From NCBI GenBank assembly GCA_965227635.1, contig OZ245763.1, positions 1,854,896 through 1,918,895 on the forward strand: DNA of 64,000 bases, in the 5' to 3' direction. The stretch comes from an uncultured Pseudohongiella sp. GTDB lineage: Bacteria > Pseudomonadota > Gammaproteobacteria > Pseudomonadales > Pseudohongiellaceae. Below, piece after piece: positions 2,872-36,982 of this stretch (positions are counted from its first letter, which is position 1; each line of letters opens with the position of its first letter). The translations under genes and the position numbers were made by a program. The notes under the pieces were generated by a model. It saw nothing but the letters and a program-made list of their open reading frames with translations. It was not told the DNA's origin and ran no database searches.

Positions 2872-2922
2872 TTCGCGGAAGGATAGGCGGGTCTGATGGC
2901 AAGTCAGGGGTCGGGAAAAACG

Positions 2923-3463: not shown

Positions 3464-3847
3464 ATGCCGCAGCAGAAAAGAATTATGGTAGATATGTCGG
3501 TCAGTCTGCTGCATCACGGCCATGTCAGGATCCTCAAAGCTGCCAGCGAATTGGGTAAAGTCATTGTTGCGCTGACCACTGACGAAGAGCTGAAGAAAAA
3601 GAAAGGCTATGTTCCCGAGCTGGACTACGCTGCCCGAAAAGAAATTCTGGAAGCCATTCGCTATGTCGACGAAGTCGTGCCTTCGAATTGGCTAATCGAT
3701 GACGACTTTCTTGCGCGTCATGGCATCGATCTGCTGGTACACGGGAGTGACAACAGCAACCCTGTGGCCAAGGACAAGTTGGTCATCTTGCCGCGAACGG
3801 AAGGTATTAGTAGCGAGGATATTCGCCGGGCAATTCGCAATAGCTAG
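3464..3847 (+). CDS. Cytidylyltransferase, TagD-like (glycerol-3-phosphate or phospho-alcohol cytidylyltransferase)
   Basis: 127 aa. It carries the HxGH motif (LLHHGHVRIL), RYVDEVVP and LPRTEGISSEDI blocks typical of the TagD/CCT cytidylyltransferase family. Confidence 0.8.
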   Translation: MPQQKRIMVDMSVSLLHHGHVRILKAASELGKVIVALTTDEELKKKKGYVPELDYAARKEILEAIRYVDEVVPSNWLIDDDFLARHGIDLLVHGSDNSNPVAKDKLVILPRTEGISSEDIRRAIRNS

Positions 3848-5151
3848 ATGGCTTGAGCGACAGGTGAATCAGCGCCCGTCTGCTCCACGTCGAGCTGCCT
3901 GTGGAAGTAGGCCATGGCGACGAGCGTGAGTGCCAGCCCGAGACTGCCGATCACATAGCTTCCATGCAGGGTAAAGCTTACCCAGGATAACTCCGGTTGA
4001 AATGCAGACTTGTAGAGCAAGATCGAAACGGTGCCCAGGTATCCAAACGAGTCTGCCAGATAGATTAGAAAGCCAGCGTTGCCAAGGCTCCGGGTTGCTG
4101 CAATCAGGCGCTCGAACAGAATGCAGTTAAATGGCACATAGCTCATGTACAGGCCAACGGTAATTGCGACAAACCAGAACACGCCCTCGATATAACCCCG
4201 GTCAAAAAGCCAGGTGCCCAGCAAAACCGTAATGAATCCAACGCCAATGATCAGGTGATTCACCATCAAGGCAGTCGCGTTGTTTCGAATTTTCATCAGG
4301 CTGCCGAGCAGGAGGAGTATCAGCAAGGTAACCGGAATACTGGTGAGTAGAAAAATTTCCGGCGTGTCTCCATAGCCGAGCGCAGTCCAGATTTCAGCGG
4401 CGAAATTGTCCGAGAAATCTCGCAGTGCGGTGAGCAACATATAGCTGATAATAAGGACGGATAGTCCGACGCTATAGTCCCTGAAAAATTGCCAGCGTGC
4501 GGTCCCGTCTAGCGGAATGCGGGCCTGTCGTAGGGCGATGTCTTCCGTAGAAGGAGCAGGTAGCGTTCCCAGCAGGTAGATGCCGGCAAGAAACGGCGGC
4601 AGGAATAGCCCGCCAGTGACGAAAGGCATCCACATTTCGCCAACACCAGTATTGATCAACAGCCAACTTCCTACTGTTTTCACAAGACCTGAGCCAAGCA
4701 CGAAGGTTACGCACAGGATCGCGCCCGCTGCCTCGGTGATTTTCCTGCCTTCCAAAAAACTGAACACTAGCCCCCAAACCATTCCCAGCGGTAAGCCATT
4801 GGCGAATAGCGCCATAAACTTTAATTGTGCAGGTAACAGTGGCAGGCAGCCCAGTGCAAACCAGGCGAGCAGAATCAGGCCTATCAGAGTCAGTTTGCGC
4901 TTCTCAGGCTGCATTTCTGACACAACTTTAATGCCAATGAATTTAGACAGCGCGTAACCGGCAACCTGGGCTATAAGCAGCGTGGTTTTGAAATCCAGTC
5001 CTGAAACGGGACTCATGACCCCTTCGAATGTGGCAACAGTGAAGGGTCTGCGAAATGCATACATGCTGACATAAGTGATGAATGCAGACAGTCCTGCCAG
5101 CAGGATCAGGCGCATTGTGTCAGACGAAGCAGTAGCAGTGGGCCTATTCAT
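3844..5151 (-). CDS. Polytopic membrane protein, MFS-like (DUF5690-like)
   Basis: 435 aa with about 12 hydrophobic segments and a YAFRRPF motif near the N-terminus. The family assignment is from memory only. Confidence 0.6.
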   Translation of the reverse strand: MNRPTATASSDTMRLILLAGLSAFITYVSMYAFRRPFTVATFEGVMSPVSGLDFKTTLLIAQVAGYALSKFIGIKVVSEMQPEKRKLTLIGLILLAWFALGCLPLLPAQLKFMALFANGLPLGMVWGLVFSFLEGRKITEAAGAILCVTFVLGSGLVKTVGSWLLINTGVGEMWMPFVTGGLFLPPFLAGIYLLGTLPAPSTEDIALRQARIPLDGTARWQFFRDYSVGLSVLIISYMLLTALRDFSDNFAAEIWTALGYGDTPEIFLLTSIPVTLLILLLLGSLMKIRNNATALMVNHLIIGVGFITVLLGTWLFDRGYIEGVFWFVAITVGLYMSYVPFNCILFERLIAATRSLGNAGFLIYLADSFGYLGTVSILLYKSAFQPELSWVSFTLHGSYVIGSLGLALTLVAMAYFHRQLDVEQTGADSPVAQAI

Positions 5152-5533
5152 GAAAGTTATGAGGGGGCGCTATTAAAAATGACGTAACAACTATTGAGGG
5201 CTGCTGGGTTTTCTGACTTTTAAAAAGCCACTGGGCAATGGCGGCCCTAAACGTTTTTATTTTTCCGTGGCGGAGCGTTACCAGCAATAGCCGCGTGAAT
5301 TCGCAGGTTGAACCATAGCATAACGAAAGCTGTCGTGCCCTGAGTGACAAGCCTCTCAATCGTGATATGGGTATAGGTTGAGAGTCTGAAGCAAAAATGA
5401 AGGCGGCACCACGAAGAGGGTTAAACTTAGCGCGGCAGCGTGTCAGGAGCGTTTCCAGTACGGACTTTTAGTCAATCAGTCCGCTACTCGACCAGCCACA
5501 TATCTTCGATGTGGAGTGAAATTTTGCGAGGGC

Positions 5534-6295
5534 TTAACTGTTTTTGCGCCGCGAATTCGTGAGGCCCAGTCCGATCAAACCAATTGCCAGCAGGATCAGA
5601 ATCGTGGGCTCTGGAACACTGGTGCTTACTGCGATCGTAAAAGTGTCAAGCTCATAATCCAAGACGGAGTTAAGCCCAGCGCCTCGAGATCTGATGGCGA
5701 AATGGCCTACGCCAAAATCGTTCGCAGAATCACCGGCAGTCCAGCTAAAAACCTGGTCCAAATCCAGTGAAGCGATAATATTGTCCAGATAAGAATAGAG
5801 ATGGAGCTGACTGTAGGCTTCGTCGCCTCCACCGAGGTCTATTTTGTCTTCAATGAAGTAGCTATCGAGCCCGCCTAGCCCATCTCCGGCGCCGTACTCA
5901 TTCTGGATGAGTATTTCATCCGGTGTTGCGCTGGCTACCGGGAAAATATCATCAGGCGTCAGGCTGAGAGTCACTCCACCCTTGCTCACCACCGTCGTTG
6001 AAGAAACCCATTTAATTCCTGGCAGGTGTCGCAGGCTGGCGGGGTGAGAATCGAGATCTGCGCCGCTGTCGTCCGTGTCGAATGTGAATTCGGTGACAAT
6101 CGATGCGCCTGTCATGGTATTGGCGCCAGTGCCCAATCCGAAATAGTTGGTGCTGTCATCACTTGAATAAACAGTACCGGTAGCCGAGATCGTAATTGGC
6201 GTGGCATTTGCCACGGCGGGGAACAGGATCAAGCAGGCTGCGGAAAAAACGGCAGCTTTACAACGTGTAAGCCATGGATTGGAACTTTTGTTCAA
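5534..6295 (-). CDS. PEP-CTERM sorting-domain secreted protein
   Basis: N-terminal signal peptide. The C-terminus is VPEPTILILLAIGLIGLGLTNSRRKNS. Confidence 0.8.
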   Translation of the reverse strand: MNKSSNPWLTRCKAAVFSAACLILFPAVANATPITISATGTVYSSDDSTNYFGLGTGANTMTGASIVTEFTFDTDDSGADLDSHPASLRHLPGIKWVSSTTVVSKGGVTLSLTPDDIFPVASATPDEILIQNEYGAGDGLGGLDSYFIEDKIDLGGGDEAYSQLHLYSYLDNIIASLDLDQVFSWTAGDSANDFGVGHFAIRSRGAGLNSVLDYELDTFTIAVSTSVPEPTILILLAIGLIGLGLTNSRRKNS

Positions 6296-6343
6296 GGAGT
6301 TGTCTCCAGCACTAACAAGGGGCTTATTCCCCCTATAAATTAC

Positions 6344-6358
6344 GCAATTTTCACGCCA
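6344..6358 (-). promoter_or_regulatory. Candidate sigma-54 (-24/-12) promoter for the PEP-CTERM gene 5534-6295
   Basis: The reverse strand reads TGGCGTG-AAAA-TTGCG. The GG and GC spacing matches TGGCACG-N4-TTGCW. The -12 element lies about 50 nt upstream of the ATG. Confidence 0.45.
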
Positions 6359-6612
6359 ATAGTTATTTTTCTATAAATCAATGACTTAGCCTATGGGGTC
6401 TGGACGAATTGTAAAGAAGGCTGACAAATTCGCAGATTGGATGACTAAAGTATTTACACTGTTAATACCTGGAAGCCTGTTTCGGGTCTGGATTGAATCA
6501 CCGGGGACGTGGAATCCGTTTGAATCCGGCTGCATCGGACAGACAGGTGCGCTACCGGAAGTTTGGCTCACCCGCTGTCATTGCCAGAGTCGAGAAACTT
6601 TCGGTTAGCCAC

Positions 6613-6640
6613 AAAAAAGCCCCGCATTGCGGGGCTTTTT
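6613..6640. terminator. Bidirectional rho-independent terminator
   Basis: AAAAAA-GCCCCGC-ATT-GCGGGGC-TTTTT. This is a 7-bp GC stem flanked by A and T runs, just downstream of the stop of 6663-7319. Confidence 0.8.
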
Positions 6641-6662
6641 AGAAGAACAGATTGAGGTGATA

Positions 6663-7319
6663 TCAGGCGATTCGCTTGCGTCTGCTGCGCAGGGCCAGAC
6701 CAGTCAGTCCGAATCCAAGAAGCATCAGAATTGATGGTTCCGGCACGGATACATTCACTTCCTGTGCTTCGAAAGCGAACAGGCGAGCCTCAAGTTCGTT
6801 GAAGATAAATCCCTGGCCAAAGCCTCCCGCTGCAATAACGGTCTGAGTGGAGTTCAGTACTGGTGCACCCCATGTCAGGCTGGAAAAGGCTGCCTGTACT
6901 TCTGACAGAAGCGGGCTGTAGCTGGCATTTTCTACCGGATTGTTGCTGAAGTAAGTTGAGGGGTACCCCGACAGGAAACCTGAGAGATCTGAACTCATGA
7001 GCACTGAAACTGAAGAGTCAGTCATGTTCACGCCATTGACGATTCCGCTGATGTTCTCTTCGTCACCACCGCCGCCCATACCAAGGACATAAAAAGTGTT
7101 GTCACCTGCGGCAAGATTGAATGAAAGCTGGGATACAGCATCGACCTGGTCATACCAATTCGCAGTGTTTTGGTAGAGGAGGTTGTTGATGCTGGTGGAA
7201 GTTCCACTAAAAATCGCGAAATCGTTGTCCGCCACCATTTCGATGCTGAAGGGCGAAGCAGAAACTGATCCGGCTGTAAAAACACTGAACAGTAACGCTG
7301 TGAGAGAGATCTTTTTCAT
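6663..7319 (-). CDS. PEP-CTERM sorting-domain secreted protein
   Basis: Signal peptide MKKISLTALLFSVFTAGSVSA. C-terminal VPEPSILMLLGFGLTGLALRSRRKRIA. Confidence 0.85.
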   Translation of the reverse strand: MKKISLTALLFSVFTAGSVSASPFSIEMVADNDFAIFSGTSTSINNLLYQNTANWYDQVDAVSQLSFNLAAGDNTFYVLGMGGGGDEENISGIVNGVNMTDSSVSVLMSSDLSGFLSGYPSTYFSNNPVENASYSPLLSEVQAAFSSLTWGAPVLNSTQTVIAAGGFGQGFIFNELEARLFAFEAQEVNVSVPEPSILMLLGFGLTGLALRSRRKRIA

Positions 7320-7999
7320 GTTTGCTCCTGAAAAACCCCGGTTAACTACTTGATTTTGGGATCAATTCGGGCCGATAAACGAAACCCGACGACGATGACG
7401 AATGAGCAATCTGTGTGCCAATAATTTCAGTTAATGTAACACGTTGATATTGTTGAAAATATTGAATTTGGCGAGACCCACAGAGATGCCGGAGTTGTAA
7501 ATTTTTTTGACACTCGGCAGGAAAAATCGACTAATTCCTCAAACCCGTTGCACATTTTCATGGCGAGACAACAAGAAAGCTTTATCGAAGATGGACAGCT
7601 AACACGGAGAGACACGCGCGTGCGGGAAGCGGATTCTGCAGGTGAAAACCTCGCCCCAAACCAGCATTTGGTGGCTTGGCAGGATCTGCCATTTGCCGTC
7701 TGCATAATTCTTAGGTGCAGAAACCTCCTGTAAACCACACCGTATTGTAAGCTTTCTTGACGCCTATTCAGGGCAATCTGTCCATTTGGTTAACAAAATG
7801 GCCCTTTCAGGAAATCTGCGGCCCCGTAAATCATTGAAAATACGGCATTTCTAATTTCGGTGTAATTCTTGCGTCCAAATCGAGAACCGATGTGTTCATC
7901 GGTCCCGCAATGGCAGGGCGTTGCCAGGCGGTAATAAAAGTAAAACAAATGAATAGAAGTCCGTATCGCAGAGCGCCGCTCTGATGGAGAACAAACTCA

Positions 8000-8908
8000 A
8001 TGTCTGCCTTCTTGAAATCAATTCGTCTGGGTGTAGCCGCTCTTATACTCAGTGTGTATGCAGTTAGTGCCAATGCCGGGTCGATTCTTTTCGCCCATGT
8101 GGCCGATTACAGCCCTTATGTAAATGATGGCAACGCCATCGCGGGTTACCTGAGTAACGCCGGTCACACTGTGACCACCCGTTATCTCAATCAGGCAGTC
8201 TGGAATGACTACGACAGCTTTGATCAGGTATTCGTTTACGACTTGTCTCACCTAGCCGACCTAAGCAGCAATCAAGTCGCTAACTACAACAACATAGGCA
8301 ACTGGTACAACGGGCTCGATAACAAGAACCTGATTCTCGATGGTCGAATTATTTCTTCTGCTCCCAGCTGGACACCCAGTTCAATGCCCAGCGAAGAAGC
8401 GTGGATACAAAACTATGCGACTCAGTTGCAGTTGCGTGGCGGCGGCCTGGTACTGGGCACAGACCACAACGCTTATCACAGCGGCATCAACACGATTAAT
8501 AATGTTATCAACGTGAATCCTTTTTATGGATACATTAATCAGTATCCCTATCAGGCATTCGTTGACCCCAACTCGCCTCTGGCCATCCCGGGTCTTGCTA
8601 CCTGCCTCACTGATCCATCACAGATCTGCATTAACGACAACTCGTCTACCGGCATCGTGGCGACCAACCTGCAACCAAACGGGCAGCTTCTCACGCCAGT
8701 TGCCTATCACGGAACGGGCACCAGCCAGGCCTGGGATCAGGCTGCAGTCTCAACGACTATGGGCAGCATCACTTTCGGCACCTGTGGCGGAGCCGGTCAG
8801 CCTGCATGCTCAGTTCCTGAGCCATCTTCGCCTATTTTGTTCGGTCTTGGTTTGTTGATGCTTGGCTTGCAGAAGCGACGGGGTTGGAAATCTAGAGCGA
8901 CAAATTGA
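8000..8908 (+). CDS. PEP-CTERM sorting-domain secreted protein
   Basis: Signal peptide. C-terminal VPEPSSPILFGLGLLMLGLQKRRGW. Confidence 0.8.
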   Translation: MSAFLKSIRLGVAALILSVYAVSANAGSILFAHVADYSPYVNDGNAIAGYLSNAGHTVTTRYLNQAVWNDYDSFDQVFVYDLSHLADLSSNQVANYNNIGNWYNGLDNKNLILDGRIISSAPSWTPSSMPSEEAWIQNYATQLQLRGGGLVLGTDHNAYHSGINTINNVINVNPFYGYINQYPYQAFVDPNSPLAIPGLATCLTDPSQICINDNSSTGIVATNLQPNGQLLTPVAYHGTGTSQAWDQAAVSTTMGSITFGTCGGAGQPACSVPEPSSPILFGLGLLMLGLQKRRGWKSRATN

Positions 8909-9601
8909 TGCAAGAGCATAATCGATTTCTAAAATAGGAAGGTGGGGTGAGGGAATGATCCAGTAGGGGATTCTGCGATTTTGGCAGTGGCCCTTTTGTA
9001 CTATTCCGTTGCCTTGCCTGGCATTCGTAATATGTTGGATACGCTTGCCTATCGCTTTTGCTATTGATGGTGGTGCTACTTAACCAGTCTAGCAGAGTGC
9101 CGTATTCCTCCCGAAAAAGTTGTAGTCCTCTGGATTGGTTCGATGTTTCTCTGCTATGCCATCTTCTATCGGTAGTGGCGATTCGGGCTCACTGGTAAGC
9201 GCAAGTTTTCGAGCCCGCTACGCGTAAAGTTCTGAGAAGGTCAAATATTCGGGATCTGCTGCCCAGGGTAGCGCTAGCTGGAGATGCATCGAGGAATGAC
9301 GGGCATGAGCCACAGGCCACAAAACTGCTCGTTGAAGCGCTAACCAGCAGGTGGGTGGTAGTCAACGGCAACTCTCAGTAATTTCCTATTTTTATCAATG
9401 CGCCGCAGTCTGTAGGCATGGGGTGCCAGGCTGTGTGTGTTTATTCGCCCGACTGTTGGCGGTGTTGAAAGATTTTTGCGGAAACTCCAGTCTAATCTAG
9501 TACAATTCACGTAAGATGTATTTGAGACCTGCGCTAGTTAACTCGAGGTCGGGTGAAATGAATTAAATACCCGGCTTGATGCAAAACTAAACTGAATACT
9601 C

Positions 9602-10033
9602 ATGAAAAAAGCCATAATCAGCTTGCTTGTATTGCTCCTCGTAGCGCCGCTTAATGCGAGTGCTGCAAGTTGGATGGCTATGAGTATGGGTAATTCAGAC
9701 CAGCATATGCAGCATGCATCGCACGGTGACCGCGATCACACTCATCACGTTGATCACAGGGTAGATCAGCTTCTCGGTTCTCTCGATGTTCACAGTTCTC
9801 ACACTCACGACTCGCTCGACTCTCACAGTGATCCGCAATCTGCGCAACATCATGAGCACGATGCTGCCGATTGTGAAGAACACTGCGCGTCTTGTACCAA
9901 CCACTGCTCCAGTTTAGGCATTGTCACGACTACTCAGGATCGTATCGACACTGAGGGAAGTGTTACTGGCATGCTGATTGGTACACCTTCCAACCATTTT
10001 GAACTCCTGTTCAGGCCTCCGATAAACGCCTGA
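9602..10033 (+). CDS. Small secreted His/Cys-rich protein preceding copA (CopL/CzcI-like by position)
   Basis: Signal peptide, His-rich middle region, DCEEHCASCTNHC cluster and a C-terminal FRPPINA. It is a paralogue of 60385-60780. Confidence 0.7.
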   Translation: MKKAIISLLVLLLVAPLNASAASWMAMSMGNSDQHMQHASHGDRDHTHHVDHRVDQLLGSLDVHSSHTHDSLDSHSDPQSAQHHEHDAADCEEHCASCTNHCSSLGIVTTTQDRIDTEGSVTGMLIGTPSNHFELLFRPPINA

Positions 10034-10201
10034 GGGTCAGGGTCAATCGAGTTTTAGATCAATCCAGTGAGACTGTTTCTGTGTCAAATATTGACCAGAC
10101 GCGTTTTTCACTTATCGTACTGCCCCTGATCCTGATACCGGTTAATCATTTTGAATCCGGCGCTGTTTTGCGCCGATCATAAACCTGTTTGGGAGTAAGC
10201 A

Positions 10202-11962
10202 ATGCAGTTCAAAAATTGGCGTGAGCAATGGCTAAATAGGCCATCGCAAGCTGTAGTAAAGTCGAGGCGCCGTTTCGTTCAGGGTCTGAGTGCGGGGGGA
10301 GCCCTGAGTACCATGTCGCTTGGGGGTGGTGCGTTTGGTCAGCCGAATGTGACGCGCGTTGCCAATGCGCCGGTGTTGAGCGGAACGACTTTTGACCTCA
10401 CCATAGATCAGTTGCCTGTCAATTTTACTGGTGCGCCGAGAATGGCAGCAGCCATCAATGGTTCGATCCCGGGGCCAACCTTGCGTTGGAAAGAGGGCGA
10501 AACGGTAACCATCAATGTGACCAATCGCCTCGCGGAAACAACCTCCTTGCACTGGCATGGCATGATCCTGCCTTATGGCATGGATGGTGTACCGGGGCTT
10601 AGTTTCCCAGGTATCAGGCCCGGGGAAACTTTTCAGTACCGCTTCAAAGTGCAACAGAGCGGTACCTACTGGTATCACTCCCACTCCGGTTTTCAGGAAA
10701 TGAAAGGCATGTACGGCGCGATCGTTATTGATCCCGCCGCCGAGGACCGCATTCAGTCAGATCGTGATCATGTCATCCTGCTATCGGAGTGGACTGATGA
10801 GGACCCGCATCATGTCTTCCAGAAACTCAAGACCATGGGCCACCTGTACAACTTCAACCAGCCTACATTGCCAGGCTTTTTGGATGATGTTGCAAGAGAC
10901 GGGTTGCAAGCTGCGATGAGCCGGCGTGACATGTTCAATGTCATGCGCATGAAGCCCACGGACCTTGCTGATCTTTCTGCAGAAACGTTGACCTACCTGA
11001 TGAACGGCATTACGCCTAGTGGCAATGATACCAAGTTGTTTAATGTGGGTGAGCGAGTGCGACTGCGATTCATCAATGGTGCAGGCAATACCTTCTTCGA
11101 TCTGCGCATTCCTGACCTGCCTATGACGGTAGTGCAAGTGGACGGTATCAATTTAGAGCCTGTCACCGTAGACGAGTTTCGTATGGGGCCCGGAGAAACG
11201 GTGGATGTCCTGGTGCGGCCCACCGAGGATGCCTATTCAATCTTTGCAGAAACCATGGAACGTACGGGCTTTGCGCTCGGCACCCTTGCAACACGCCCCG
11301 GACTGAAGGCTACTGTGCCGTCAAGGCGCCAGGCGCAGTGGCTGTCCATGACGGACATGATGGGGGCAATGCCCCATGACGATCCCGCTATGGGTGGTAT
11401 GAATCATGGCGATGATCATATGGCGATGGGAGACAGCATGGTGGCAGTGCGTCATGCCAGCTCTGAATTTGGTCCCAGCACGGATATGCGTGTGGATTCA
11501 CCCAGAATCAACCTCGATGACCCTGGCGTTGGCTTGCGAGAAACCTCGCGCCGCGTACTGACGCTTGCAGACCTGCATTCGCTGGATGGCGAATTTGACA
11601 GCCGTGACCCAGAAAGAGAGATCGAGTTGCACCTCACCGGCAATATGGAGCGCTATAGCTGGTCCATAGACGGGCTGGAATATGGCAAATCCACCCCGGT
11701 GCATTTTCGCCAATATGAGAAGGTGCGCGTGCATCTGCACAACGACACCATGATGACCCATCCGATGCATCTACACGGTATGTGGAGTGATCTCGAAGAT
11801 GCCTACGGAAATTTCCTGGCGCGCCGTCACACGATTCCTGTGCAGCCAGCGCAGCGAGTCAGTTTTAGCGCGACCGCTGACGCCGTGGGAAGGTGGGCCT
11901 GGCATTGCCATCTGTTGTTTCATATGGACGCGGGCATGTTCAGGGAGGTGATTGTCACATGA
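10202..11962 (+). CDS. copA: Multicopper oxidase CopA (copper resistance protein A)
   Basis: Tat signal SRRRFVQGL. Copper-site blocks HWHGM, YWYHSHS, HPMHLHG and WAWHCHLLFHMDAGM. Met/His-rich insert. Confidence 0.9.
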   Translation: MQFKNWREQWLNRPSQAVVKSRRRFVQGLSAGGALSTMSLGGGAFGQPNVTRVANAPVLSGTTFDLTIDQLPVNFTGAPRMAAAINGSIPGPTLRWKEGETVTINVTNRLAETTSLHWHGMILPYGMDGVPGLSFPGIRPGETFQYRFKVQQSGTYWYHSHSGFQEMKGMYGAIVIDPAAEDRIQSDRDHVILLSEWTDEDPHHVFQKLKTMGHLYNFNQPTLPGFLDDVARDGLQAAMSRRDMFNVMRMKPTDLADLSAETLTYLMNGITPSGNDTKLFNVGERVRLRFINGAGNTFFDLRIPDLPMTVVQVDGINLEPVTVDEFRMGPGETVDVLVRPTEDAYSIFAETMERTGFALGTLATRPGLKATVPSRRQAQWLSMTDMMGAMPHDDPAMGGMNHGDDHMAMGDSMVAVRHASSEFGPSTDMRVDSPRINLDDPGVGLRETSRRVLTLADLHSLDGEFDSRDPEREIELHLTGNMERYSWSIDGLEYGKSTPVHFRQYEKVRVHLHNDTMMTHPMHLHGMWSDLEDAYGNFLARRHTIPVQPAQRVSFSATADAVGRWAWHCHLLFHMDAGMFREVIVT

Positions 11963-12931: not shown

Positions 12932-13034
12932 GGGGACACTCATAAAATAATAAAATAGCGAAGTTTGGCTGGATAATAGTCTTCACTCTCTTCGGTTGTT
13001 TCGGGCGTTATTTTATTATTTTATGAGTGTCCCC
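12932..13034. repeat. GGGGACACT inverted-repeat element, subtype A (full copy)
   Basis: Left arm GGGGACACTCATAAAATAATAAAAT. Right arm ATTTTATTATTTTATGAGTGTCCCC. About 50 nt of unique core. Confidence 0.85.
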
Positions 13035-17526: not shown

Positions 17527-17603
17527 GGGGACACTGATAACTTATTGACTTAAGGAATTCAGAATAGGATGCCTCGCTAAGTGTTTAAGTTATCAGTGTC
17601 CCC
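17527..17603. repeat. GGGGACACT inverted-repeat element, subtype B (core inverted relative to 16274-16349)
   Basis: GGGGACACTGATAACTTATTGAC...CCTCGCTAAGTGTTTAAGTTATCAGTGTCCCC. Its reverse complement aligns with the 16274 copy. Confidence 0.85.
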
Positions 17604-23090: not shown

Positions 23091-23193
23091 GGGGACACTC
23101 ATAAAATAATAAAATAAAGAAGCTTAGTCGATTGATCGTCTGCATTTTCAGCATGGATTGCAGGCGTCATTTAACTATTTGATTAGTGTCCCC
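23091..23193. repeat. GGGGACACT inverted-repeat element (hybrid arms)
   Basis: The left arm GGGGACACTCATAAAATAATAAAATAAAG is subtype A. The right arm TTAACTATTTGATTAGTGTCCCC resembles the 33294 arm. It overlaps the last codons of the GST gene. Confidence 0.75.
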
Positions 23194-23841: not shown

Positions 23842-23991
23842 GGGGACACTCATAAAATAATAAATTAAGGGCATTTAGTCGATGCGGAACGCTACTTGCC
23901 AACTTGCCCGGTCACTGAGTGGTAAATAGGTGGTTTTTATTTCGTGAGGGCTACCTGGCGTAGATTAATTTATTATTTTATGAGTGTCCCC
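23842..23991. repeat. GGGGACACT inverted-repeat element, subtype A (full copy, 150 bp)
   Basis: GGGGACACTCATAAAATAATAAATT ... AATTTATTATTTTATGAGTGTCCCC. Confidence 0.85.
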
Positions 23992-27758: not shown

Positions 27759-27834
27759 GGGGCTCTGATAACTTGGTGACTTATTAAGTCTAGAACGAAA
27801 TGCATCTCTAAGTTTCTAAGCTGTCAGTGTCCCC
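27759..27834. repeat. GGGGACACT inverted-repeat element, subtype B
   Basis: GGGGCTCTGATAACTTGGTGAC...TAAGCTGTCAGTGTCCCC. It sits where composition turns AT-rich. Confidence 0.8.
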
Positions 27835-28123: not shown

Positions 28124-28455
28124 ATATATGCAAGACTAATTTGTTCTAATTCTGGCATTGCGTCGTTCGCTGATGAAAAGATCAACTTCAAACGCGATTA
28201 TGCTGCAGGTTACAGGCAGCAAATAAACAATCTTCAAGCGAAACTTTATAGATATACCAGTGACGATCCCGCGTTTGATGTTCCCAAGATGTTTAACTCG
28301 GGAAGCTTGGTAAAAGGCGTTACGCTTAAAACTTTCAAAGATATGGGTGTCGCTGTATACGTTAAGCAAAGAACACCACAAAGAGGGTTCACTATGAACG
28401 TGACCCAGTTACCCGAAGTGCTTTCCGTATTTTATACGATTAGTTTGCGAAGCTA
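28124..28455 (+). pseudogene. Start-less open frame directly upstream of the helicase gene (possible degraded or non-canonically initiated gene)
   Basis: A 110-codon open frame with protein-like composition (...FADEKINFKRDYAAGYRQQINNLQAKLYRYTSDDPAFDVPKMFNSGSLVKGVTLKTFKDMGVAVYVKQ...). There is no ATG/GTG/TTG before codon 56. It ends 13 nt before 28469. Confidence 0.3.
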
Positions 28456-28468
28456 ATCGGAAAACTAA

Positions 28469-31400
28469 ATGGACCTTTTTCGAAGGCTAATGATGCGCAT
28501 AACAATACCAAAGCATGAATACAGTAGGTCGTATGTTGGCGGGAACAAGTTATCTAGGCTAGCTAACCCTGAGCTAGAATTGGACGTAGAGATAAATGAA
28601 AGCCAGCGGAATGGTATATACGAAATACGAACAAGTTTGCCTCCCCCTTTAAATACAATATATCTCTTGAAGCCTAACTCGCGATCTGATGTGCCAGACA
28701 ATGCTTGCAGTTTAAAGTTTGTCATACCTTGCCCCATCAATGAAATCACGCCAGACACAAAACTGAAATGGCATACATATTCGGTTGAAAAGGCGCTACT
28801 TGATCCTAGAGAAATCACTGAATCATGGAAAGACAAGTTTAGATTTGTAGAAGAAAATCTTGAGGAACGAAAGGTAGGGCTAAGGCTGCCACAGATCGGC
28901 GCTCTGCATGCAATTTCTGCATATTTTTCATTAACAAGAAACACTGAGCCAGCGACAATTGTGCTTCCAACAGGAACGGGAAAGACTGAAACAATGCTTT
29001 CAACCGCGGTTTCTGGGCAATGTCAGAAAATACTGGTGCTTGTACCGTCAGATGCGCTAAGAGCTCAAATATCTGAAAAATTCTTGAACCTGGGGTATTT
29101 AAGAGAGTTAGGGGTTATTAGTTTTGATACAGTGAATCCTCACGTTGCGGTTCTTAAGAAAGGTCTTAAGTCTGATGAAGAAGCGTCGGATATAGTCGAG
29201 GGGTCAAATATAATAGTAGCTACAGCTTCCATACTCGCTGCTAGTCAACAGTCCTCTGTCAAACTGATTTGCGAAGCTGCATCACACCTCTTTGTAGATG
29301 AAGCGCATCACATTTCCGCTAATACTTGGTCGTCAATTCGTGAGCTGTTTGAAGGGAAGAAAATATTACAATTTACAGCTACACCATTTCGGAATGACAC
29401 CAAATCACTTGGCGGGAAAATTATCTACAACTACTCAATGGGAGAGGCTCAGGAGGCTGGGTACTTCAAACATATTAATTTGCTTCCAGTAGAAGAATAC
29501 TACGAAAATGAGAAAAACAGAACCATAGCAACTAAGGCAATTGCACAATTAAGAGAAGACCTAAACAATGGATTGGATCATATTGTCCTTGCGCGAGTGA
29601 CTTCAAGAACAAGTGCAAATAACGTAGTAGAGATATATGAACAAATCGCGCCTGAGCATAATCCAATATGCGTGCATTCTGGCAAATTAAAGTCAGAAAA
29701 CTCCGAGAATTTAGAAAGGCTACTATCAAGAGAATCACGAGTTATTGTTTGTGTGGATATGCTTGGTGAAGGTTATGACTTACCGAATCTAAAAATTGCA
29801 GCGATACATGACCATCACAAAAGCCTAGCTGTAACTTTACAATTTATAGGGAGGTTTACCCGCACAGCTGAAAACATTGGGAACGCATCTGTAGTTGTAA
29901 ACATAGCTGAACCTGAGGTGGAGAAAGATTTAGAAAAGCTTTATTCGCAAGGAGCAGACTGGGATGTGGTATTAAGGCGTCTTGCAGAAGACCGCATATC
30001 TCGAGAAGTAAAATTGCAGGAGGTGGTAGACAATCTAAAAGGTAAAGGCAATTTGCATACAGAATTGTCGCTTTGGAATTTAAAGCCGGGGTACTCGGCA
30101 ATGCTATTTCGAGCAACTTGCGAGGAATGGAATCCAGAGAATTTCAAAAATTCACTACCGCGTTGTGAGGAGTATTGGTACTCAATTGCAGATGACGAGA
30201 AGATTTTAGTCATTCTCACTTTACAGAATCTGAAGGTTAAGTGGGGCGACTACGAAGAGCTGAGTGACATAGTATACAAGCTGCTAATTGCCCATTGGGA
30301 TAGTGATAGAAATTCTCTCTACATTTACTCGAACGACTATAAAGCCTTTAGAACTGAACGTTTGGCGCTTGATCTCTGTGGTGAAGAGTGCGAGCTGATG
30401 AGCGGTAACCAAATCTTCAATGTCTTCAACGGCATGGAGTTCCCACTTATCAGAAACCTAGGAGCTTCAAAAGAAGGCGCAATTAGTTTTACTCAGTATT
30501 TTGGTCCAAATGTTACCGATGGTTTGTCGCAGATTGAAGCCTCGCAATCAAAGTTGAGCAATTGTGCAGGTATGGGGTATATCGAAGGGGACCGAGTAAT
30601 CTGGGGGTGCTCAGAAAAGAAAGGGAAAGTTTGGTCCGTCCAAAGTGGTGCCATATCAGATTGGATTGCTTGGGCAAATTCAGCGTGGGACAAAGTCATC
30701 GGTGGCGGGATAGATGAAGAAAATATCACTCGAAACTTTCTCAGGCCGACAAAAATTAATTCAGCCTACGGTGAACATCCAATTACGGTATTGTGGGGGG
30801 AGCATACTGCTTCAGCTCCCGAAGACAGCATTGTTATCCATTTTGGTGATGTTACCGTTCCAATGTATCTAGTTGATCTAGAATTGGTCGAACAACTAGA
30901 GTCTGGAGCATATAGAATTCGGTTCTTTACCGATGACATTGAAGCCACCTATGAATTTCTAATTTCAGATCAAGTGGCTCAAGGGTTCAGGTACACACTC
31001 ATTCAAGGGCCTGAAATATCCATACAGAAAGGGCGAGGAGACCTAAAACCGCTACCTGAATATATGGTCACTGATCCGCTGATTATCAATTATATAGATG
31101 GTTCATTTTCATACAATTGTTACTTGATTAGGGTAACTCAGGAAGTCGGGCGATATGATGCTAACAACATCGAAGTTATTGATTGGGATGGCATCGATAT
31201 TCGCAAAGAATCGATGGGGAAAAATATTGCCCAAGATAGTATTCAGTATAAGTCTTTTGATGAGCTACAGAGTGATTTTGATGTTGTTATAAATGACGAC
31301 AATGCTGGTGAAGCAGCAGATTTAGTTTGTGTTAAGGATTTAGGCGAAGAAATAAATTTGGCGCTTGTTCATTGTAAGTACTCCTCCCGAAATGAAGCGG

Positions 31401-31738
31401 GGGCTAGAGTCAAAGACCTGTATGAGGTGTGTGGACAATGCCAGAAAAGCGTGCGTTGGAAACATGTCGGTCTGCCGAGGTTATTTCAGCATATAAAACG
31501 TAGGGAGGCCACTTGGAGAAGTGAAGGTTACACTCGGTTTCTGAAAGGTCAGACTTCTGACCTTCTTGCATTGGCAAACAAGTCTAGAACAACGCCTTTA
31601 AATCTGCAGATCATCATTGTTCAGCCTGGATTGAGCTTGAACGTCTGTAGCCAAGATATGTTGAGATTATTGGGTAGTACATCACTGTATGTGGAGAAGA
31701 CAGCTAAAGCGAATTTTAGAGTCATTGGAAGCGATTAG
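28469..31738 (+). CDS. SF2 DEAH-box helicase with C-terminal Mrr-like restriction-endonuclease-type motif
   Basis: Motif I PTGTGKTE (aa 167-174), motif II DEAH (277-280), motif III TATP (303-306), motif VI QFIGRFTR (458-465). The C-terminal block GEAADLVCV-x12-LALVHCKYS (aa 947-972) follows the D...(Q/H)xK pattern. Confidence 0.85.
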   Translation: MDLFRRLMMRITIPKHEYSRSYVGGNKLSRLANPELELDVEINESQRNGIYEIRTSLPPPLNTIYLLKPNSRSDVPDNACSLKFVIPCPINEITPDTKLKWHTYSVEKALLDPREITESWKDKFRFVEENLEERKVGLRLPQIGALHAISAYFSLTRNTEPATIVLPTGTGKTETMLSTAVSGQCQKILVLVPSDALRAQISEKFLNLGYLRELGVISFDTVNPHVAVLKKGLKSDEEASDIVEGSNIIVATASILAASQQSSVKLICEAASHLFVDEAHHISANTWSSIRELFEGKKILQFTATPFRNDTKSLGGKIIYNYSMGEAQEAGYFKHINLLPVEEYYENEKNRTIATKAIAQLREDLNNGLDHIVLARVTSRTSANNVVEIYEQIAPEHNPICVHSGKLKSENSENLERLLSRESRVIVCVDMLGEGYDLPNLKIAAIHDHHKSLAVTLQFIGRFTRTAENIGNASVVVNIAEPEVEKDLEKLYSQGADWDVVLRRLAEDRISREVKLQEVVDNLKGKGNLHTELSLWNLKPGYSAMLFRATCEEWNPENFKNSLPRCEEYWYSIADDEKILVILTLQNLKVKWGDYEELSDIVYKLLIAHWDSDRNSLYIYSNDYKAFRTERLALDLCGEECELMSGNQIFNVFNGMEFPLIRNLGASKEGAISFTQYFGPNVTDGLSQIEASQSKLSNCAGMGYIEGDRVIWGCSEKKGKVWSVQSGAISDWIAWANSAWDKVIGGGIDEENITRNFLRPTKINSAYGEHPITVLWGEHTASAPEDSIVIHFGDVTVPMYLVDLELVEQLESGAYRIRFFTDDIEATYEFLISDQVAQGFRYTLIQGPEISIQKGRGDLKPLPEYMVTDPLIINYIDGSFSYNCYLIRVTQEVGRYDANNIEVIDWDGIDIRKESMGKNIAQDSIQYKSFDELQSDFDVVINDDNAGEAADLVCVKDLGEEINLALVHCKYSSRNEAGARVKDLYEVCGQCQKSVRWKHVGLPRLFQHIKRREATWRSEGYTRFLKGQTSDLLALANKSRTTPLNLQIIIVQPGLSLNVCSQDMLRLLGSTSLYVEKTAKANFRVIGSD

Positions 31739-31780
31739 CAGCTCTAATACATTTCTTGTGTTTGCGCTAAATTGAACACC

Positions 31781-33256
31781 ATGGAATCAGACATCCAGGA
31801 ACTAGCCTTACAAATTGACTCAGCGCTTGAGTCTGGCGCCACTGGTGAGCTGGATCGCCTAATTTGTGCGTGCGAAAATCAGCTTGAAAATGCAGAGGGA
31901 CTGACTAGGGTAATTCTTTGGTTCTATATTGCGAATTGCTATTCGGGTATCAATACTTCCCAAGATAACGTCGATTCTGTTTGGAGTTGGGAAAAGAACG
32001 AATTAATCTTTCAAGTTTTATCTCTTCGCAAAGCAGCTTCAGAGCCATCATTCGAATCATCGGATGTCATGATTCGTTGCAAGATATTAACCAATCTTGG
32101 AAATGTACTTAATCAAATAGGTAGGCCCATCGAAGCAATTAGGCTTTGGGATCAAGCATTGAGATACTATCCGATTTTTGCAATGGCTATTGGAAATAAA
32201 GGGAGAGGAGTCACAGAGTATGCCAACTATCTCTACGATCAAGGACATGCCGCGGTACTCGTTGCCGAAGCCAACAAGACGCTTAAGCAACTAACTAATA
32301 AAAGGTTGCTGTGGGACAGTGGGGAAGATACTAGCGCCAGAGCATATTTCATATCTGTTTTTGAGAACAACAACCGTAGCCTCGAAGAGGTGGGTTACGA
32401 TTATGAATTTGATTTAGACCGTTGGGCGCTAGGCAAAACAAAGGGGGAGCGAAAATACAGACAATGGTGCCTTGATCAGAATTTATTTCTTAATCCATTG
32501 AATGACATTATTACTAAAAGTGTGGCGGCGACTGATTCGCTGCACCTTCCAAGTCATACTTATGGGCTTGAAGAGCACCCTAGGTTTCCTGAGTACTATA
32601 ATCATTTAAAACAAGAATTTGTAACTGCAAGGTACTTGTACTATGAGGCAGGACAAGAGAAAAATCATTTTTCAAACCACGAAGTTTTTCTAGTGGATAG
32701 TTATAATGCCACTAGATTCGGATACCGCACCGAACAACTGAAGATGTCGTTCCGAATGGCTTACTCAATCTTTGACAAGGTCGCCCTATTTCTTAACGAC
32801 TATTTTTCCGTTGGTCTTAAAGCTAGTAGTGTTAATTTTAGAAACATATGGGGAAACAGGAGCAAAGATCAGTTTGTTCTGCACCCTTGCTTTGCTAGCA
32901 GTGTGAATTGGCCGCTAAGAGGATTGTATTTCCTCTCAAAAGAATTGTTTGACCCGAATTTCAATGATGTGGCTTCTCCAGATGCTAAAGAGCTGGCGAT
33001 CATAAGAAATCGAATTGAGCATAGGTTTCTATGCATTCAGCATTACTATTCCCAACATGATAGTGATATGGATTTTCAATACTATATTTCAATCGATGAT
33101 TTTGAAATTAAAACACTTCGAATCCTAAGGTTAGCTCGTGAAGCCTTAATTTATCTTTCACTTGCAATGCATCGTGAAGAAAAAATACGCGAATTTGAAA
33201 ACCCGGATTCGGTCAAACTACCTATCTACTCATTTCCCGTAGAAGAAAGGAACTAA
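31781..33256 (+). CDS. TPR-like plus C-terminal HEPN-domain protein (LA2681-like HEPN)
   Basis: TPR-like segment ILTNLGNVLNQIGRPIEAIRLWDQALRYYPIFAMAIGNKG. Rx4H HEPN motif RNRIEH at nt 33005-33022. The track start at 31772 is TTG, and I prefer the ATG at 31781. Confidence 0.75.
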   Translation: MESDIQELALQIDSALESGATGELDRLICACENQLENAEGLTRVILWFYIANCYSGINTSQDNVDSVWSWEKNELIFQVLSLRKAASEPSFESSDVMIRCKILTNLGNVLNQIGRPIEAIRLWDQALRYYPIFAMAIGNKGRGVTEYANYLYDQGHAAVLVAEANKTLKQLTNKRLLWDSGEDTSARAYFISVFENNNRSLEEVGYDYEFDLDRWALGKTKGERKYRQWCLDQNLFLNPLNDIITKSVAATDSLHLPSHTYGLEEHPRFPEYYNHLKQEFVTARYLYYEAGQEKNHFSNHEVFLVDSYNATRFGYRTEQLKMSFRMAYSIFDKVALFLNDYFSVGLKASSVNFRNIWGNRSKDQFVLHPCFASSVNWPLRGLYFLSKELFDPNFNDVASPDAKELAIIRNRIEHRFLCIQHYYSQHDSDMDFQYYISIDDFEIKTLRILRLAREALIYLSLAMHREEKIREFENPDSVKLPIYSFPVEERN

Positions 33257-33293: not shown

Positions 33294-33322
33294 GGGGACA
33301 CTAATAGTTTAATAGCTTAAGG
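33294..33322. repeat. Solo arm of the GGGGACACT element
   Basis: GGGGACACTAATAGTTTAATAGCTTAAGG, 38 nt after the HEPN gene stop. No clean partner arm. Confidence 0.6.
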
Positions 33323-33376: not shown

Positions 33377-33476
33377 GGATTCTAGCAACAGATACTCTCA
33401 GGAAATCGAGCCGTCTACGCATCGGGTTCAGCGCTAATAAGTCTCAGGAAGTTGGTGCCCAGATTCGGAAGAATCC
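33377..33476. repeat. ~100-bp direct repeat, copy 1 (diverged)
   Basis: GGATTCTAGCAACAGATACTCTCAGGAAATCGAGCCGTCTACGC...GTTGGTGCCCAG aligns with 33626-33725 along its whole length with scattered mismatches. Confidence 0.75.
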
Positions 33477-33625: not shown

Positions 33626-33725
33626 GGAATCTAGCAACAGATACTCTGAGCCAATCGAGCCGCCTACGCGTCAGGTTCAGTGCTATTAAGTCTGTGGGGA
33701 GTTGGTGCCAGGGGCGGAATCGAAT
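33626..33725. repeat. ~100-bp direct repeat, copy 2, ending in a tRNA 3'-end-like sequence on the minus strand
   Basis: The reverse complement of 33702-33725 is GATTCGATTCCGCCCCTGGCACCA (T-loop, acceptor and CCA-like). No 5' tRNA half follows. Confidence 0.7.
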
Positions 33726-35687: not shown

Positions 35688-35718
35688 AGTCTATAAGATG
35701 GAGTTACTACAGGATCAA
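35688..35718 (-). promoter_or_regulatory. MerR-type promoter (19-bp spacer) facing the hydrolase gene
   Basis: The reverse strand reads TTGATC-CTGTAGTAACTCCATCTTA-TAGACT. It has the same -35 and CTGTAGT half-site as the merT promoter. Confidence 0.5.
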
Positions 35719-36951: not shown

Positions 36952-36982
36952 TTGATCCTGTAGTGACTACAGGATATAGAAT
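36952..36982 (+). promoter_or_regulatory. merT promoter/operator, MerR-type
   Basis: TTGATC-CTGTAGTGACTACAGGATA-TAGAAT with a 19-bp spacer. It contains the perfect dyad CCTGTAGT-G-ACTACAGG (36957-36973). Confidence 0.8.

Follow-up and report, generated by a model that had tools for sequence, protein, structure and literature searches.

Two adjacent genes were analysed in a window of 64,000 nucleotides, which is the whole stretch of DNA under study, from an uncultured Pseudohongiella sp. ORF calling in the window gave a helicase-nuclease gene followed on the same strand by a TPR-HEPN gene, the product of which is 491 aa counted from its ATG and 494 aa if translation begins at an in-frame TTG at 31772. 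The annotation of the source assembly includes both genes and gives the helicase as 1081 aa; the start at 28469 fits, as the family consensus begins M-x-L-F. The exact TPR-HEPN protein (P0121) was found in public data. The features of the locus are as follows.

27759..27834, no strand: complete copy of the GGGGACACT MITE/REP-like element; context only, outside the system
28469..31738, + strand: helicase-nuclease gene of an uncharacterised family; 1089 aa ORF
28469..28873, + strand: helicase N-terminal domain, aa 1-135; a few residues conserved in the family consensus
28877..29938, + strand: SF2 helicase core, aa 137-490, ResIII/XPB/RadD-like (Pfam, PDB, PHROG)
29966..31165, + strand: central beta-rich region, aa 500-899, RdgC-like fold, putative DNA-binding (AF2 and Foldseek)
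31166..31735, + strand: FokI-like PD-(D/E)xK nuclease domain, aa 900-1089 (AF2 and Foldseek)
31295..31378, + strand: predicted catalytic block D943, D944, E948, D951 ... H968-C-K970 (invariant residues)
31739..31780, + strand: intergenic gap between the helicase and TPR-HEPN genes; 42 nt, no terminator-like site
31781..33256, + strand: TPR-HEPN gene, LA2681 family; 491 aa
32081..32173, + strand: best TPR-like repeat, aa 101-131, in the N-terminal half (Pfam TPR_1, OGT TPR)
32567..33178, + strand: HEPN_LA2681 domain, aa 263-466 (Pfam PF18733)
33005..33022, + strand: R-x4-H motif RNRIEH (R409, E413, H414); coordinates verified
33294..33322, no strand: half copy of the GGGGACACT MITE/REP-like element; context only

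Both ORFs and all of the motifs quoted in the initial annotation were re-verified at their coordinates, with the exception of the length of one spacer, and the roughly 40 nt which it placed between the genes was measured as 42 nt. The AT-rich segment that it described was also found, as the pair has a GC content of 41.4% compared to 50-53% in the remaining window, and the low-GC tract runs on to about 38.9 kb at 44% GC. As it had stated, the pair lies between a two-component system upstream and a metal-resistance block downstream, which is of the mer/czc type; no methylase or ATPase genes adjoin the pair within the window. The pair had further been thought to be bracketed by GGGGACACT repeats. 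The window contains 12 copies of this sequence where 0.29 would be expected. It forms the end of a dispersed palindromic MITE/REP-like element, of which the copy at 33294 is a half, and it is not a bracket specific to the pair.

The helicase-nuclease family comprises more than 100 full-length homologues at 50-72% identity, and its C-terminal module was found in 1,330 clusters at 50% identity (E<=1e-3). Full-length members have a single architecture, namely an XPB/ResIII-type SF2 motor, an RdgC-like central region and a FokI-like PD-(D/E)xK domain, and the complete relatives listed are about 1,000-1,120 aa long with the module at the same C-terminal position. No Pfam match was obtained for aa 1-135 at E<=1. 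The SF2 core is complete, as had been proposed: the motifs PTGTGKTE (aa 167-174, including Walker A K172), DEAH (277-280), TATP (303-306) and QFIGRFTR (458-465, motif VI) are near-invariant across 120 sequences, and the Pfam matches to ResIII (E=4.5e-22), Helicase_C (E=5.8e-9) and DEAD are confined to aa 137-466. The best PDB sequence match is archaeal XPB (E=3e-6), and PHROG 16 'DNA helicase' was matched with E=1e-38.

Residues 500-1089 are covered by no Pfam, PADLOC, NCBIfam or PDB sequence model. When an AF2 model of this region (pLDDT 87.8) was searched with Foldseek, E. coli RdgC was matched in the PDB (2owl, probability 0.98) and the BFVD matches included phage proteins annotated as RdgC (probability 0.96-1.00, 280-340 aligned columns, the latter being the basis on which the match was assigned to aa 500-899, rather than an alignment). 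The TM-scores of the RdgC-like matches are low, at 0.2-0.4. At the sequence level there was no Pfam match to RdgC (PF04381), and hhalign returned a probability of 0.1 with a shallow RdgC profile (Neff 1.2). The signal from the two structure libraries suggests that the central region is similar to RdgC at the level of the fold only.

The AF2 model of aa 900-1089 (pLDDT 94.6, pTM 0.91) has the order helix, three strands, helices, strand. Its top PDB match is FokI (1fok_A, probability 0.99, TM 0.47, 178 of 190 columns), and the weaker matches to HincII, BsmI, Shedu, BstEII and CdiA-CT are all to PD-(D/E)xK nucleases. As modelled, the helicase C-terminus is a genuine restriction-endonuclease-fold domain of the PD-(D/E)xK superfamily. 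It had been annotated as an Mrr-like nuclease core, of which the restriction fold stands; the Mrr label is too specific, as Mrr_cat (PF04471) was matched by none of the 72 family members at E<=1, H and not Q occupies the relevant position, MspJI/Mrr-type entries are absent from the 50 listed structural matches, and FokI is the best of these. Residues D951, H968 and K970, together with D943, D944 and E948, do not vary among 72 sequences with identities as low as 23%, and neither do E914, Y985 and Q990 elsewhere in the domain. The D...HxK block that had been read from GEAADLVCV (aa 947-955) and LALVHCKYS (aa 964-972) is therefore conserved in homologues, but the spacer between the two motifs is 8 residues (KDLGEEIN) and not 12; D951 lies 17 residues from H968 and 19 from K970. 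In terms of the D ... (D/E)xK triad, D951 and K970 are present and the middle position is held by the invariant H968 in place of D/E, a replacement which may make the nuclease atypical or non-catalytic.

In the second protein, HEPN_LA2681 (PF18733) was matched with E=1.6e-65 (220.8 bits against a 27-bit cutoff) over profile positions 4-204 of 204. RNRIEH spans aa 409-414 when numbered from the ATG (412-417 when numbered from the TTG), and its R409, E413 and H414 are invariant in 47 HEPN homologues, which confirms the earlier suggestion of an LA2681-type HEPN with an Rx4-6H signature, and the conservation of that signature in homologues. The sole TPR match, to Pfam TPR_1 at aa 101-131 (E=7.5e-4), scores 19.7 bits and is under the 27.8-bit cutoff; the TPR-like region matches the TPRs of OGT with E=9e-8. 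Fusion to TPR repeats was described for LA2681 HEPNs in 2013 (Anantharaman 2013), and an LA2681 protein is listed as a predicted defence gene by DefensePredictor.

The initial annotation regarded the two genes as one module. Examination of the neighbourhoods showed that the HEPN gene is downstream of the helicase at 4 of 71 informative helicase loci, and that the helicase is upstream of the HEPN gene at none of 46 informative HEPN loci. In plasmid records the genes adjoin in 2 of the 52 with a near-full-length helicase match and in 2 of the 17 with a HEPN match. Across these sets, the two co-occur in about 5% of cases counted from the helicase and in 0-12% of those counted from the HEPN gene. 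Both proteins were found singly in many genomes, and the HEPN gene is carried without the helicase on Tistrella and Vibrio plasmids. As each gene is usually without the other, they look like two distinct defence genes that are at times carried together rather than like one fixed system. In the helicase tree the linked copies fall in two tip clades, each with HEPN-less sister sequences; in two of the juxtapositions the gene order is shared and the gap is short (24-91 nt), and a third, on a Roseovarius plasmid, has the gene order reversed and a gap of 231 nt. The juxtaposition has thus arisen at least three times and the gene order is not fixed. The linked HEPNs are no closer to one another than to unlinked HEPNs and form no subfamily; that of Agrobacterium is 81% identical to an unlinked HEPN of Tistrella. 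Reading the helicase-nuclease and LA2681 HEPN as a conserved two-gene system is only partly supported and was not retained, as the homologues are mostly apart and the linked copies lack matching clades.

The homology between the window and locus L027 is limited to the two genes, and the pair was retained as identity fell to 72% in the helicase and to 54% in the HEPN. This retention, together with the recurring adjacency of two fairly rare families, exceeds a naive chance model and could reflect functional synergy. It is unlikely, though a serious contender, that the genes are a true two-gene system in this lineage, in which the helicase-nuclease attacks invading DNA and the TPR-HEPN RNase is physically linked to this enzyme and serves either as a PrrC-like back-up that is released when a phage inhibits the helicase-nuclease or as an effector that the helicase switches on when it senses foreign DNA. 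Such a system would suit the 42-nt gap without a terminator, the movement of the pair as a unit between unrelated contexts, the three or more independent juxtapositions, and the habit of LA2681 HEPN genes to follow restriction, helicase or NTPase genes, some being embedded, as PrrC is, in type I R-M operons; it is at odds with the low co-occurrence from both sides, the reversed and more widely spaced Roseovarius pair, the lack of a co-evolving subfamily among linked HEPNs, and the many genomes with either protein alone.

The neighbours of the helicase vary and include TIR, which is upstream of it in two distant clades, Schlafen, OLD-type ATPases, HNH and type I R-M, as well as OLD/Gabija-like, MoxR and RT genes, two HEPN families and AAA_15/21 ATPases. 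Among 139 genes flanking the helicase, no single neighbour family is represented more than about 4 times. A same-strand ORF of at least 150 aa starts within 65 nt downstream at about 18 of 71 helicase loci, which hints that a second gene, of variable identity, may often act alongside the helicase, and many loci have no linked gene or housekeeping neighbours only. A type I operon precedes about 4 of 80 relatives, and those operons have their own HsdR. The helicase-nuclease could accordingly be imagined as a general chassis with interchangeable effectors (HEPN, TIR, Schlafen, HNH, OLD-type ATPase-nucleases), the LA2681-HEPN being one plug-in. This would account for the variable but tightly linked same-strand gene downstream at about a quarter of the loci and for the effector-type domains that recur beside the helicase (TIR, Schlafen, HNH, two HEPN families, AAA_15/21), but we consider it highly improbable, because several neighbours, such as the OLD-type ATPase-TOPRIM, MoxR ternary system and RT, are of families already known as defence components themselves, linked genes are lacking at many loci, the helicase has its own nuclease effector, and any defence island gives the same pattern.

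Genes preceding the HEPN gene encode HsdR/HsdS, MmeI, an Eco57I-like methylase, RecD2, UvrD, a KAP NTPase, a SAVED protein and an AAA/NACHT protein; type I R-M genes flank it at 8 of 80 loci, and at L120 it sits inside the operon. Small antitoxin-like genes are not consistently found beside it. Matches occur in 19 of 5,426 E. coli genomes, and 52 plasmid records carry a helicase match covering at least 80% of the query. Relatives of each gene are patchily distributed and often plasmid-borne with flanks enriched in defence genes, and through guilt by association both are probable anti-phage genes. Hardly any credence can be given to a non-immune role, whereby the helicase-nuclease would be an XPB-Bax1-like repair or recombination enzyme, possibly carried on a plasmid or island for its own maintenance, and the HEPN the toxin of a toxin-antitoxin-like addiction module. 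Among solved structures the closest relative of the helicase is indeed XPB, taken from complexes of XPB-Bax1 that act in repair; the RdgC-like region is reminiscent of a protein associated with recombination, and family members are frequent on plasmids; however, the distribution in E. coli is extremely patchy, copies occur within type I R-M operons and amid defence genes, the pair is low in GC, the 50 structural matches listed include no Bax1 chain and the region has no Pfam match, and the HEPN gene has no consistent antitoxin-like partner.

With moderate confidence, we favour the locus being a small horizontally acquired defence islet of two self-sufficient single-gene effectors, which were co-inherited or moved as one cassette in this lineage. 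From the observed domain identities, catalytic-residue conservation, distribution and neighbourhood statistics, we infer biochemical activities, a trigger and a defence phenotype as follows. Driven by ATP, the XPB/ResIII-type SF2 motor would move along foreign DNA or open it. The central RdgC-like region would grip this DNA, plausibly where there are ends, forks or intermediates of recombination, and the FokI-like domain would cut it via the invariant D...HxK site and the extra acidic residues. Cutting would probably need dimerisation, as FokI-type domains have a single active site. The HEPN dimer would be kept inactive by the TPR half, and upon infection the RNase would cleave tRNA or mRNA, leading to cell arrest. 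Both genes favour the same niche, lying within restriction-type operons and defence islands or at their 3' flank, and this shared niche would explain why the helicase and HEPN are occasionally adjacent.

It is also conceivable, if rather improbable, that the loose pairing is functional, and that LA2681 TPR-HEPNs are promiscuous guard RNases docking on diverse DNA-translocating restriction-type enzymes, with the helicase-nuclease as a new sensor. The TPR half would then dock on type I HsdR, MmeI, RecD2 or UvrD helicases and on the helicase-nuclease, and the HEPN would fire once a phage disables the host enzyme. If true, the PrrC-EcoprrI arrangement would here exist in a generalised form that is indifferent to the partner, and the helicase-nuclease would sense phage replication or recombination intermediates via its RdgC-like clamp. 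Returning to the favoured islet of two independent effectors, the helicase-nuclease family is the more interesting half of the locus.

The architecture had not been placed in a named system from the sequence, and when PADLOC was run on both proteins neither matched a system-specific model. The helicase-nuclease resembles Hna, a helicase-nuclease abortive-infection protein, in that one polypeptide begins with an SF2 helicase and ends with a PD-(D/E)xK nuclease, Hna being a patchily distributed single-effector defence (PMC13381803). Hna of Sinorhizobium meliloti is 845 aa, with a DinG/XPD-like SF2 motor, a reduced Arch domain and the nuclease directly after (PMC13381803), whereas the protein here, at 1089 aa, has an additional N-domain beside its ResIII/XPB-like motor, some 400 aa of RdgC-like central region and a nuclease of the HxK variant. 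Identity with Hna was rejected, as the motor matches ResIII, XPB and RadD but not DinG and about 400 aa separate motor and nuclease; no Hna chain was matched in PDB searches with the helicase, for which the PDB copy may lack Hna entries. HmaA, of the Hma system of Halomonas meridiana, is likewise a helicase that ends in a PD-(D/E)xK nuclease, at a length of about 1,100-1,200 aa. It has a Snf2 motor (PF00176) and a NOV_C/DUF3883 nuclease (PF13020), is encoded in a helicase-methylase-ATPase operon located in a defence-gene insertion hotspot, and can act alone against T4 (PMC11232893). Neither PF00176, PF13020 nor the PADLOC Hma models were matched here and no methylase or ATPase genes adjoin the pair, so that Hma was also discarded, as was an R subunit of a type I, type III or ISP enzyme, for which the weak core-helicase matches are far under the cutoffs (EcoAI, 24.7 bits against 550) and an adjoining methylase is lacking.

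The ATP-dependent type IV enzymes of the SauUSI type share with this protein a stand-alone helicase with a nuclease, an extra DNA-recognition domain and no cognate methylase, and there is weak similarity in the helicase core (7clg, E=1.2e-3; PADLOC mREase_IV, E=1.7e-6). In SauUSI the nuclease is a PLD domain at the N-terminus and an SRA-like reader domain lies at the C-terminus, whereas the nuclease here is C-terminal and FokI-like and the extra region RdgC-like. FokI itself, the best structural match of aa 900-1089 (probability 0.99), has the residues D450/D467/K469, which we take to have the same 17/19-residue spacing as D951/H968/K970. It differs in that sequence identity is about 10%, the second acidic residue is replaced here by H, and the fusion partner here is a helicase instead of a sequence-recognition domain.

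The HEPN gene is comparable to those of PrrC and RloC as a HEPN RNase gene riding on restriction operons, LA2681 genes being flanked by type I hsd at 8 of 80 loci. PrrC and RloC have an N-terminal ABC-type ATPase, whereas the N-terminal half here is TPR-like, the HEPN family is PF18733, and the partners extend far beyond type I R-M. A back-up role for restriction-operon HEPNs was proposed in the 2013 survey, which also described Hhe, a single polypeptide with HEPN, SF1 helicase and Vsr nuclease, and single polypeptides in which a DUF4145-HEPN is fused with an REase and an SF2 helicase (Anantharaman 2013). The same three activities (helicase, restriction-fold DNase and HEPN RNase) are represented in these fusions and at this locus, where they are divided between two separate, rarely linked genes of other families. 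The Hhe-like domain set noted initially is therefore an analogy of domain types and not a closer kinship, as the locus has two genes, an SF2 helicase in place of SF1 and a FokI-like nuclease in place of Vsr, with no PADLOC Hhe match for either protein. The pair is probably a mini defence island of two autonomous, putative defence genes that moved together in this lineage.

The reading of the gene pair as a new two-gene system does not stand. That reading is supported in part, for these are two probable defence genes, one with a real nuclease fold and one with a real HEPN domain. Both open reading frames were confirmed, and both genes are called in the source assembly, on a 4.3-Mb contig:

28469-31738 (+), helicase-nuclease gene, 1089 aa
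31781-33256 (+), HEPN-TPR partner gene (HEPN_LA2681 family), 491 aa from its ATG

The genes are separated by 42 nt without a terminator-like site, and an in-frame TTG at 31772 accounts for the numbering R412/H417 previously used for the HEPN protein. The motifs quoted for both proteins in the initial annotation were all found at their positions, the sole error being the spacer between GEAADLVCV and LALVHCKYS, which is 8 residues and not 12. A coding-like frame of ~106 codons (28136-28456, +), with no in-frame start before 28289, stops 12 nt before the helicase ATG and could be the remnant of a displaced gene; its identification as a nucleotidyltransferase N-terminus was dropped as it had no Pfam support. 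Within the helicase coding sequence, the Rfam GA-cis sRNA model matched at 31150-31230 (+) with 25.6 bits, below the gathering score of 34.7, and the match is most likely due to chance.

Pfam recognises only ResIII, DEAD and Helicase_C in the helicase (aa 137-466), and the closest solved relatives of this core are archaeal XPB and Rad25, and RadD, with SauUSI matching weakly. More than 100 full-length homologues of ~1090 aa were found at 50-72% identity in many phyla, and in every case they are annotated just as 'DEAD/DEAH box helicase'. When aa 500-1089 were searched with phmmer against 1.84 billion representative proteins, 1,330 clusters were retrieved at E<=1e-3 and 302 at E<=1e-30; the matches listed are mostly proteins of 1,000-1,120 aa whose C-terminus holds the module in the corresponding place. 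The family (about 1,300 clusters, defined at 50% identity) extends over Proteobacteria, Bacteroidota, Actinomycetota and Bacillota, and is also carried on plasmids. The C-terminal 590 residues had no match in Pfam, PADLOC, NCBIfam or the PDB sequences, and for aa 500-1089 neither a Pfam scan of 72 family members (E<=1) nor a profile search against the PDB sequences (E<=10) returned anything. A relative of the module (27% identity, 90% coverage), annotated 'uvrB_1', lies at about 165.8-167.4 kb of CAKLQH020000001.1 and CAKLQF020000001.1 (Acinetobacter phage MD-2021a), 330-380-kb records labelled as phage.

AF2 modelled aa 500-1089 with confidence (pLDDT 87.8, pTM 0.83), and likewise aa 900-1089 alone (pLDDT 94.6). 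Foldseek of the whole 590-residue model against the PDB gave mostly noise, and the nuclease domain had to be split off for its best match to emerge, which is the FokI cleavage domain (probability 0.99, TM 0.47, 178 of 190 columns). The weaker matches, HincII, BsmI, Shedu, BstEII and CdiA-CT, are every one PD-(D/E)xK nucleases. The proposed catalytic residues D951, H968 and K970 are invariant in 72 sequences, down to 23% identity, and so are E914, Q926, D943, D944, E948, Y985, Q990 and R1012. D951 is 17 residues from H968 and 19 from K970, a spacing identical to that of D450, D467 and K469 in FokI. As modelled, the C-terminus is predicted to be a nuclease at the fold level, with the invariant H occupying the (D/E) position; the restriction-nuclease fold first proposed was therefore upheld by the model and the FokI match, and its description as Mrr-like is better replaced by FokI-like. 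For the central region, RdgC (2owl) was the sole high-probability PDB match (0.98), and the best matches among viral models (0.96-1.00) include phage proteins annotated as RdgC. Profile comparison with RdgC was negative twice, the second time with an RdgC alignment that was shallow (every sequence >=85% identical), and the predicted RdgC-like DNA-binding fold is probable but not proven.

The assignment of the partner as a HEPN protein was confirmed by a Pfam HEPN_LA2681 (PF18733) match at E=1.6e-65 (aa 263-466), and within its RNRIEH motif R409, E413 and H414 are invariant among 47 homologues. The N-terminal half is TPR-like, with one sub-threshold Pfam TPR match and a match to the OGT TPR at E=9e-8. 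One LA2681 protein is listed by DefensePredictor, as a predicted novel defence gene. The protein may act as a dimeric RNase under the control of its TPR half, and the outcome would be growth arrest.

Conservation of the pair was assessed from the neighbourhoods of 80 helicase loci from reference genomes (26-75% identity), of which 71 extend 1 kb or more downstream, and of 80 metagenomic LA2681 loci, 46 with at least 1 kb upstream. An LA2681 HEPN gene lies directly downstream of the helicase in four of the 71 (L015, L016, L032 and L027), and no helicase was found on either side of the HEPN gene in the 80 metagenomic loci, so the co-occurrence expected of a conserved system is mostly absent. On plasmids, adjacent genes were seen in 2 of the 17 records that match the HEPN protein and in 2 of the 52 that match the helicase over nearly its full length. 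On the Agrobacterium tumefaciens plasmid the helicase precedes the HEPN gene by 91 nt, and on the Roseovarius plasmid the HEPN gene comes first, followed after 231 nt by a helicase 33% identical to that of the window; Tistrella and Vibrio plasmids carry the HEPN gene alone.

In the helicase tree the linked copies form two tip clades with sisters that lack the HEPN gene, and the linked HEPN proteins do not cluster. The HEPN protein of the window is 54% identical to that of L027 and 55% identical to an unlinked one, and the linked Agrobacterium protein is 81% identical to the unlinked one of Tistrella. As the window and L027 have only these two genes in common and their flanks are unrelated, the pair has stayed together, or travelled, as a cassette during the divergence of the helicase to 72% identity. 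Helicase-HEPN linkage is recurrent, with at least three origins, facultative and of low frequency.

Each gene has other neighbours. Those of the helicase are heterogeneous, the biggest cluster having three members and no family occurring more than four times among 139 flanking genes; they include OLD-type ATPase-TOPRIM, a MoxR ternary system, reverse transcriptase, HNH, ABC-3C-like, TIR and Schlafen genes and many unknowns. TIR-domain genes are found directly upstream in an alphaproteobacterial clade and in a very distant one from Bacteroidota (L023, 5593-6294; L071, 5664-6533), and a Schlafen/AlbA_2 gene (L065) or an HNH gene (L077) directly downstream. Some type I R-M operons end with the helicase, as on an E. 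coli chromosome (L162, Eco_24-2013, 1438-11027), on Vibrio coralliilyticus p337 (L163) and at L001, L003 and L006. These loci represent a gammaproteobacterial subclade with the order hsdR-hsdM-hsdS-helicase, and on p337 two genes, one DUF3696 and one hypothetical, have been inserted ahead of the helicase. Dependence of the helicase on such an operon was ruled out, as one lies upstream in just about 4 of 80 loci.

The HEPN gene lies directly behind HsdR/HsdS, MmeI, an Eco57I-type methylase, RecD2, UvrD, a KAP NTPase, a SAVED protein or an AAA/NACHT protein. Type I R-M genes flank it at 8 of 80 loci (about 10%), L121, L122, L126, L139, L140 and L144 among those adjoining such operons, and at L120 it is found between hsdS and hsdM:

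1784-4789, HsdR
4743-5951, HsdS
5962-7515, HEPN
8885-10492, HsdM

Genes placed beside or inside type I R-M operons bring to mind PrrC in EcoprrI, and a PrrC-like guard link of the HEPN-TPR protein to adjacent DNA-targeting enzymes is possible, if rather unlikely. Restriction operons and defence islands are the haunt of both genes, and this shared niche would explain their occasional adjacency without a functional link.

The AT-rich setting of the pair was borne out (41.4% GC against ~50-53% for the genome). Its supposed bracketing by GGGGACACT repeats was not, as this sequence occurs 12 times in the window (0.29 expected) and is the terminal inverted repeat of a 75-150-bp palindromic MITE/REP-like element dispersed over many intergenic sites, with two subfamilies (...CTCATAAAATAATAAA... 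and ...CTGATAACTT...). All copies inspected appeared intergenic, and the repeats were ruled out as island boundaries:

12932-13034, element copy
16274-~16350, element copy
17527-17603, element copy
23091-23193, element copy
23842-23991, element copy
27759-27834, element copy
33294, half copy
38141, half copy

The low-GC tract (~44%) continues past the pair to ~38.9 kb, so the acquired segment may be about 11 kb and mix defence with metal-resistance cargo:

33.3-38.9 kb, glyoxalase-family gene, alpha/beta hydrolase, thioredoxin, merR and merT/merP-like genes

A search of the window for tRNA genes came back empty, and neither integrases nor transposases are annotated closer than about 10 kb to the pair. 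The non-coding stretch directly 3' of the HEPN gene holds a 68-nt direct repeat (33377-33444 and 33626-33693; 87% identical, 249 nt apart), which occurs nowhere else in the window, shows no significant RNA fold and matches nothing in Rfam. The thioredoxin and merR genes lie between the arms of a 29-nt inverted repeat (35690-35718 / 36952-36980, 83% complementary).

One adjacent pair is insufficient ground for naming a system. HEPN RNases have been proposed as back-up effectors for DNA-targeting defences (Anantharaman 2013), and the LA2681 HEPN-TPR genes behind many unrelated restriction, helicase and NTPase genes offer a testable handle on that proposal; their promiscuous, R-M-riding behaviour is worth testing. 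The uncurated and widespread helicase-nuclease family is worth testing as well, being a concrete candidate for a new family of defence proteins. In its members an ATP-driven XPB-type motor would be joined to an RdgC-like region that holds the DNA and to a FokI-like nuclease with a single active site, which probably has to dimerise in order to cut. Most loci have no adjacent methylase, so the enzyme is not of the classical R-M kind. It may be modification-dependent and type IV-like, or it may sense DNA structure like Hna, DruE or Hachiman, and structure sensing is favoured because of the RdgC-like region.

Experimental work on either family was not found in the searchable literature, nor was the combination of XPB-type motor, RdgC-like region and FokI-like HxK nuclease in any paper searched; the searched text of the Druantia III DruE preprint, DefensePredictor and the 'embedded defences' preprint does not describe the helicase family. 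Both proteins were run through PADLOC (v2), which matched no system-specific or candidate model, and together with NCBIfam and PHROGs gave no system-level assignment; by NCBIfam the helicase is not an R subunit of type I or type III. The suggested likeness to Hhe was not sustained, by comparison with Anantharaman 2013 and with no PADLOC match. Hna is an 845-aa DinG-like protein (PMC13381803) and HmaA joins Snf2 to NOV_C within the Hma operon (PMC11232893), whereas the helicase of the window has 1089 aa and is of the ResIII/XPB type; both names were ruled out on helicase class, size and nuclease family. The window helicase would fit among the known single-polypeptide helicase-nuclease defence enzymes, and its neighbour belongs to a HEPN family already known from prediction. 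With Hna, HmaA, DdmD and DruE as examples, helicase-nucleases made of one protein are emerging as a major class of immunity in bacteria, one that detects the DNA structures of phages.
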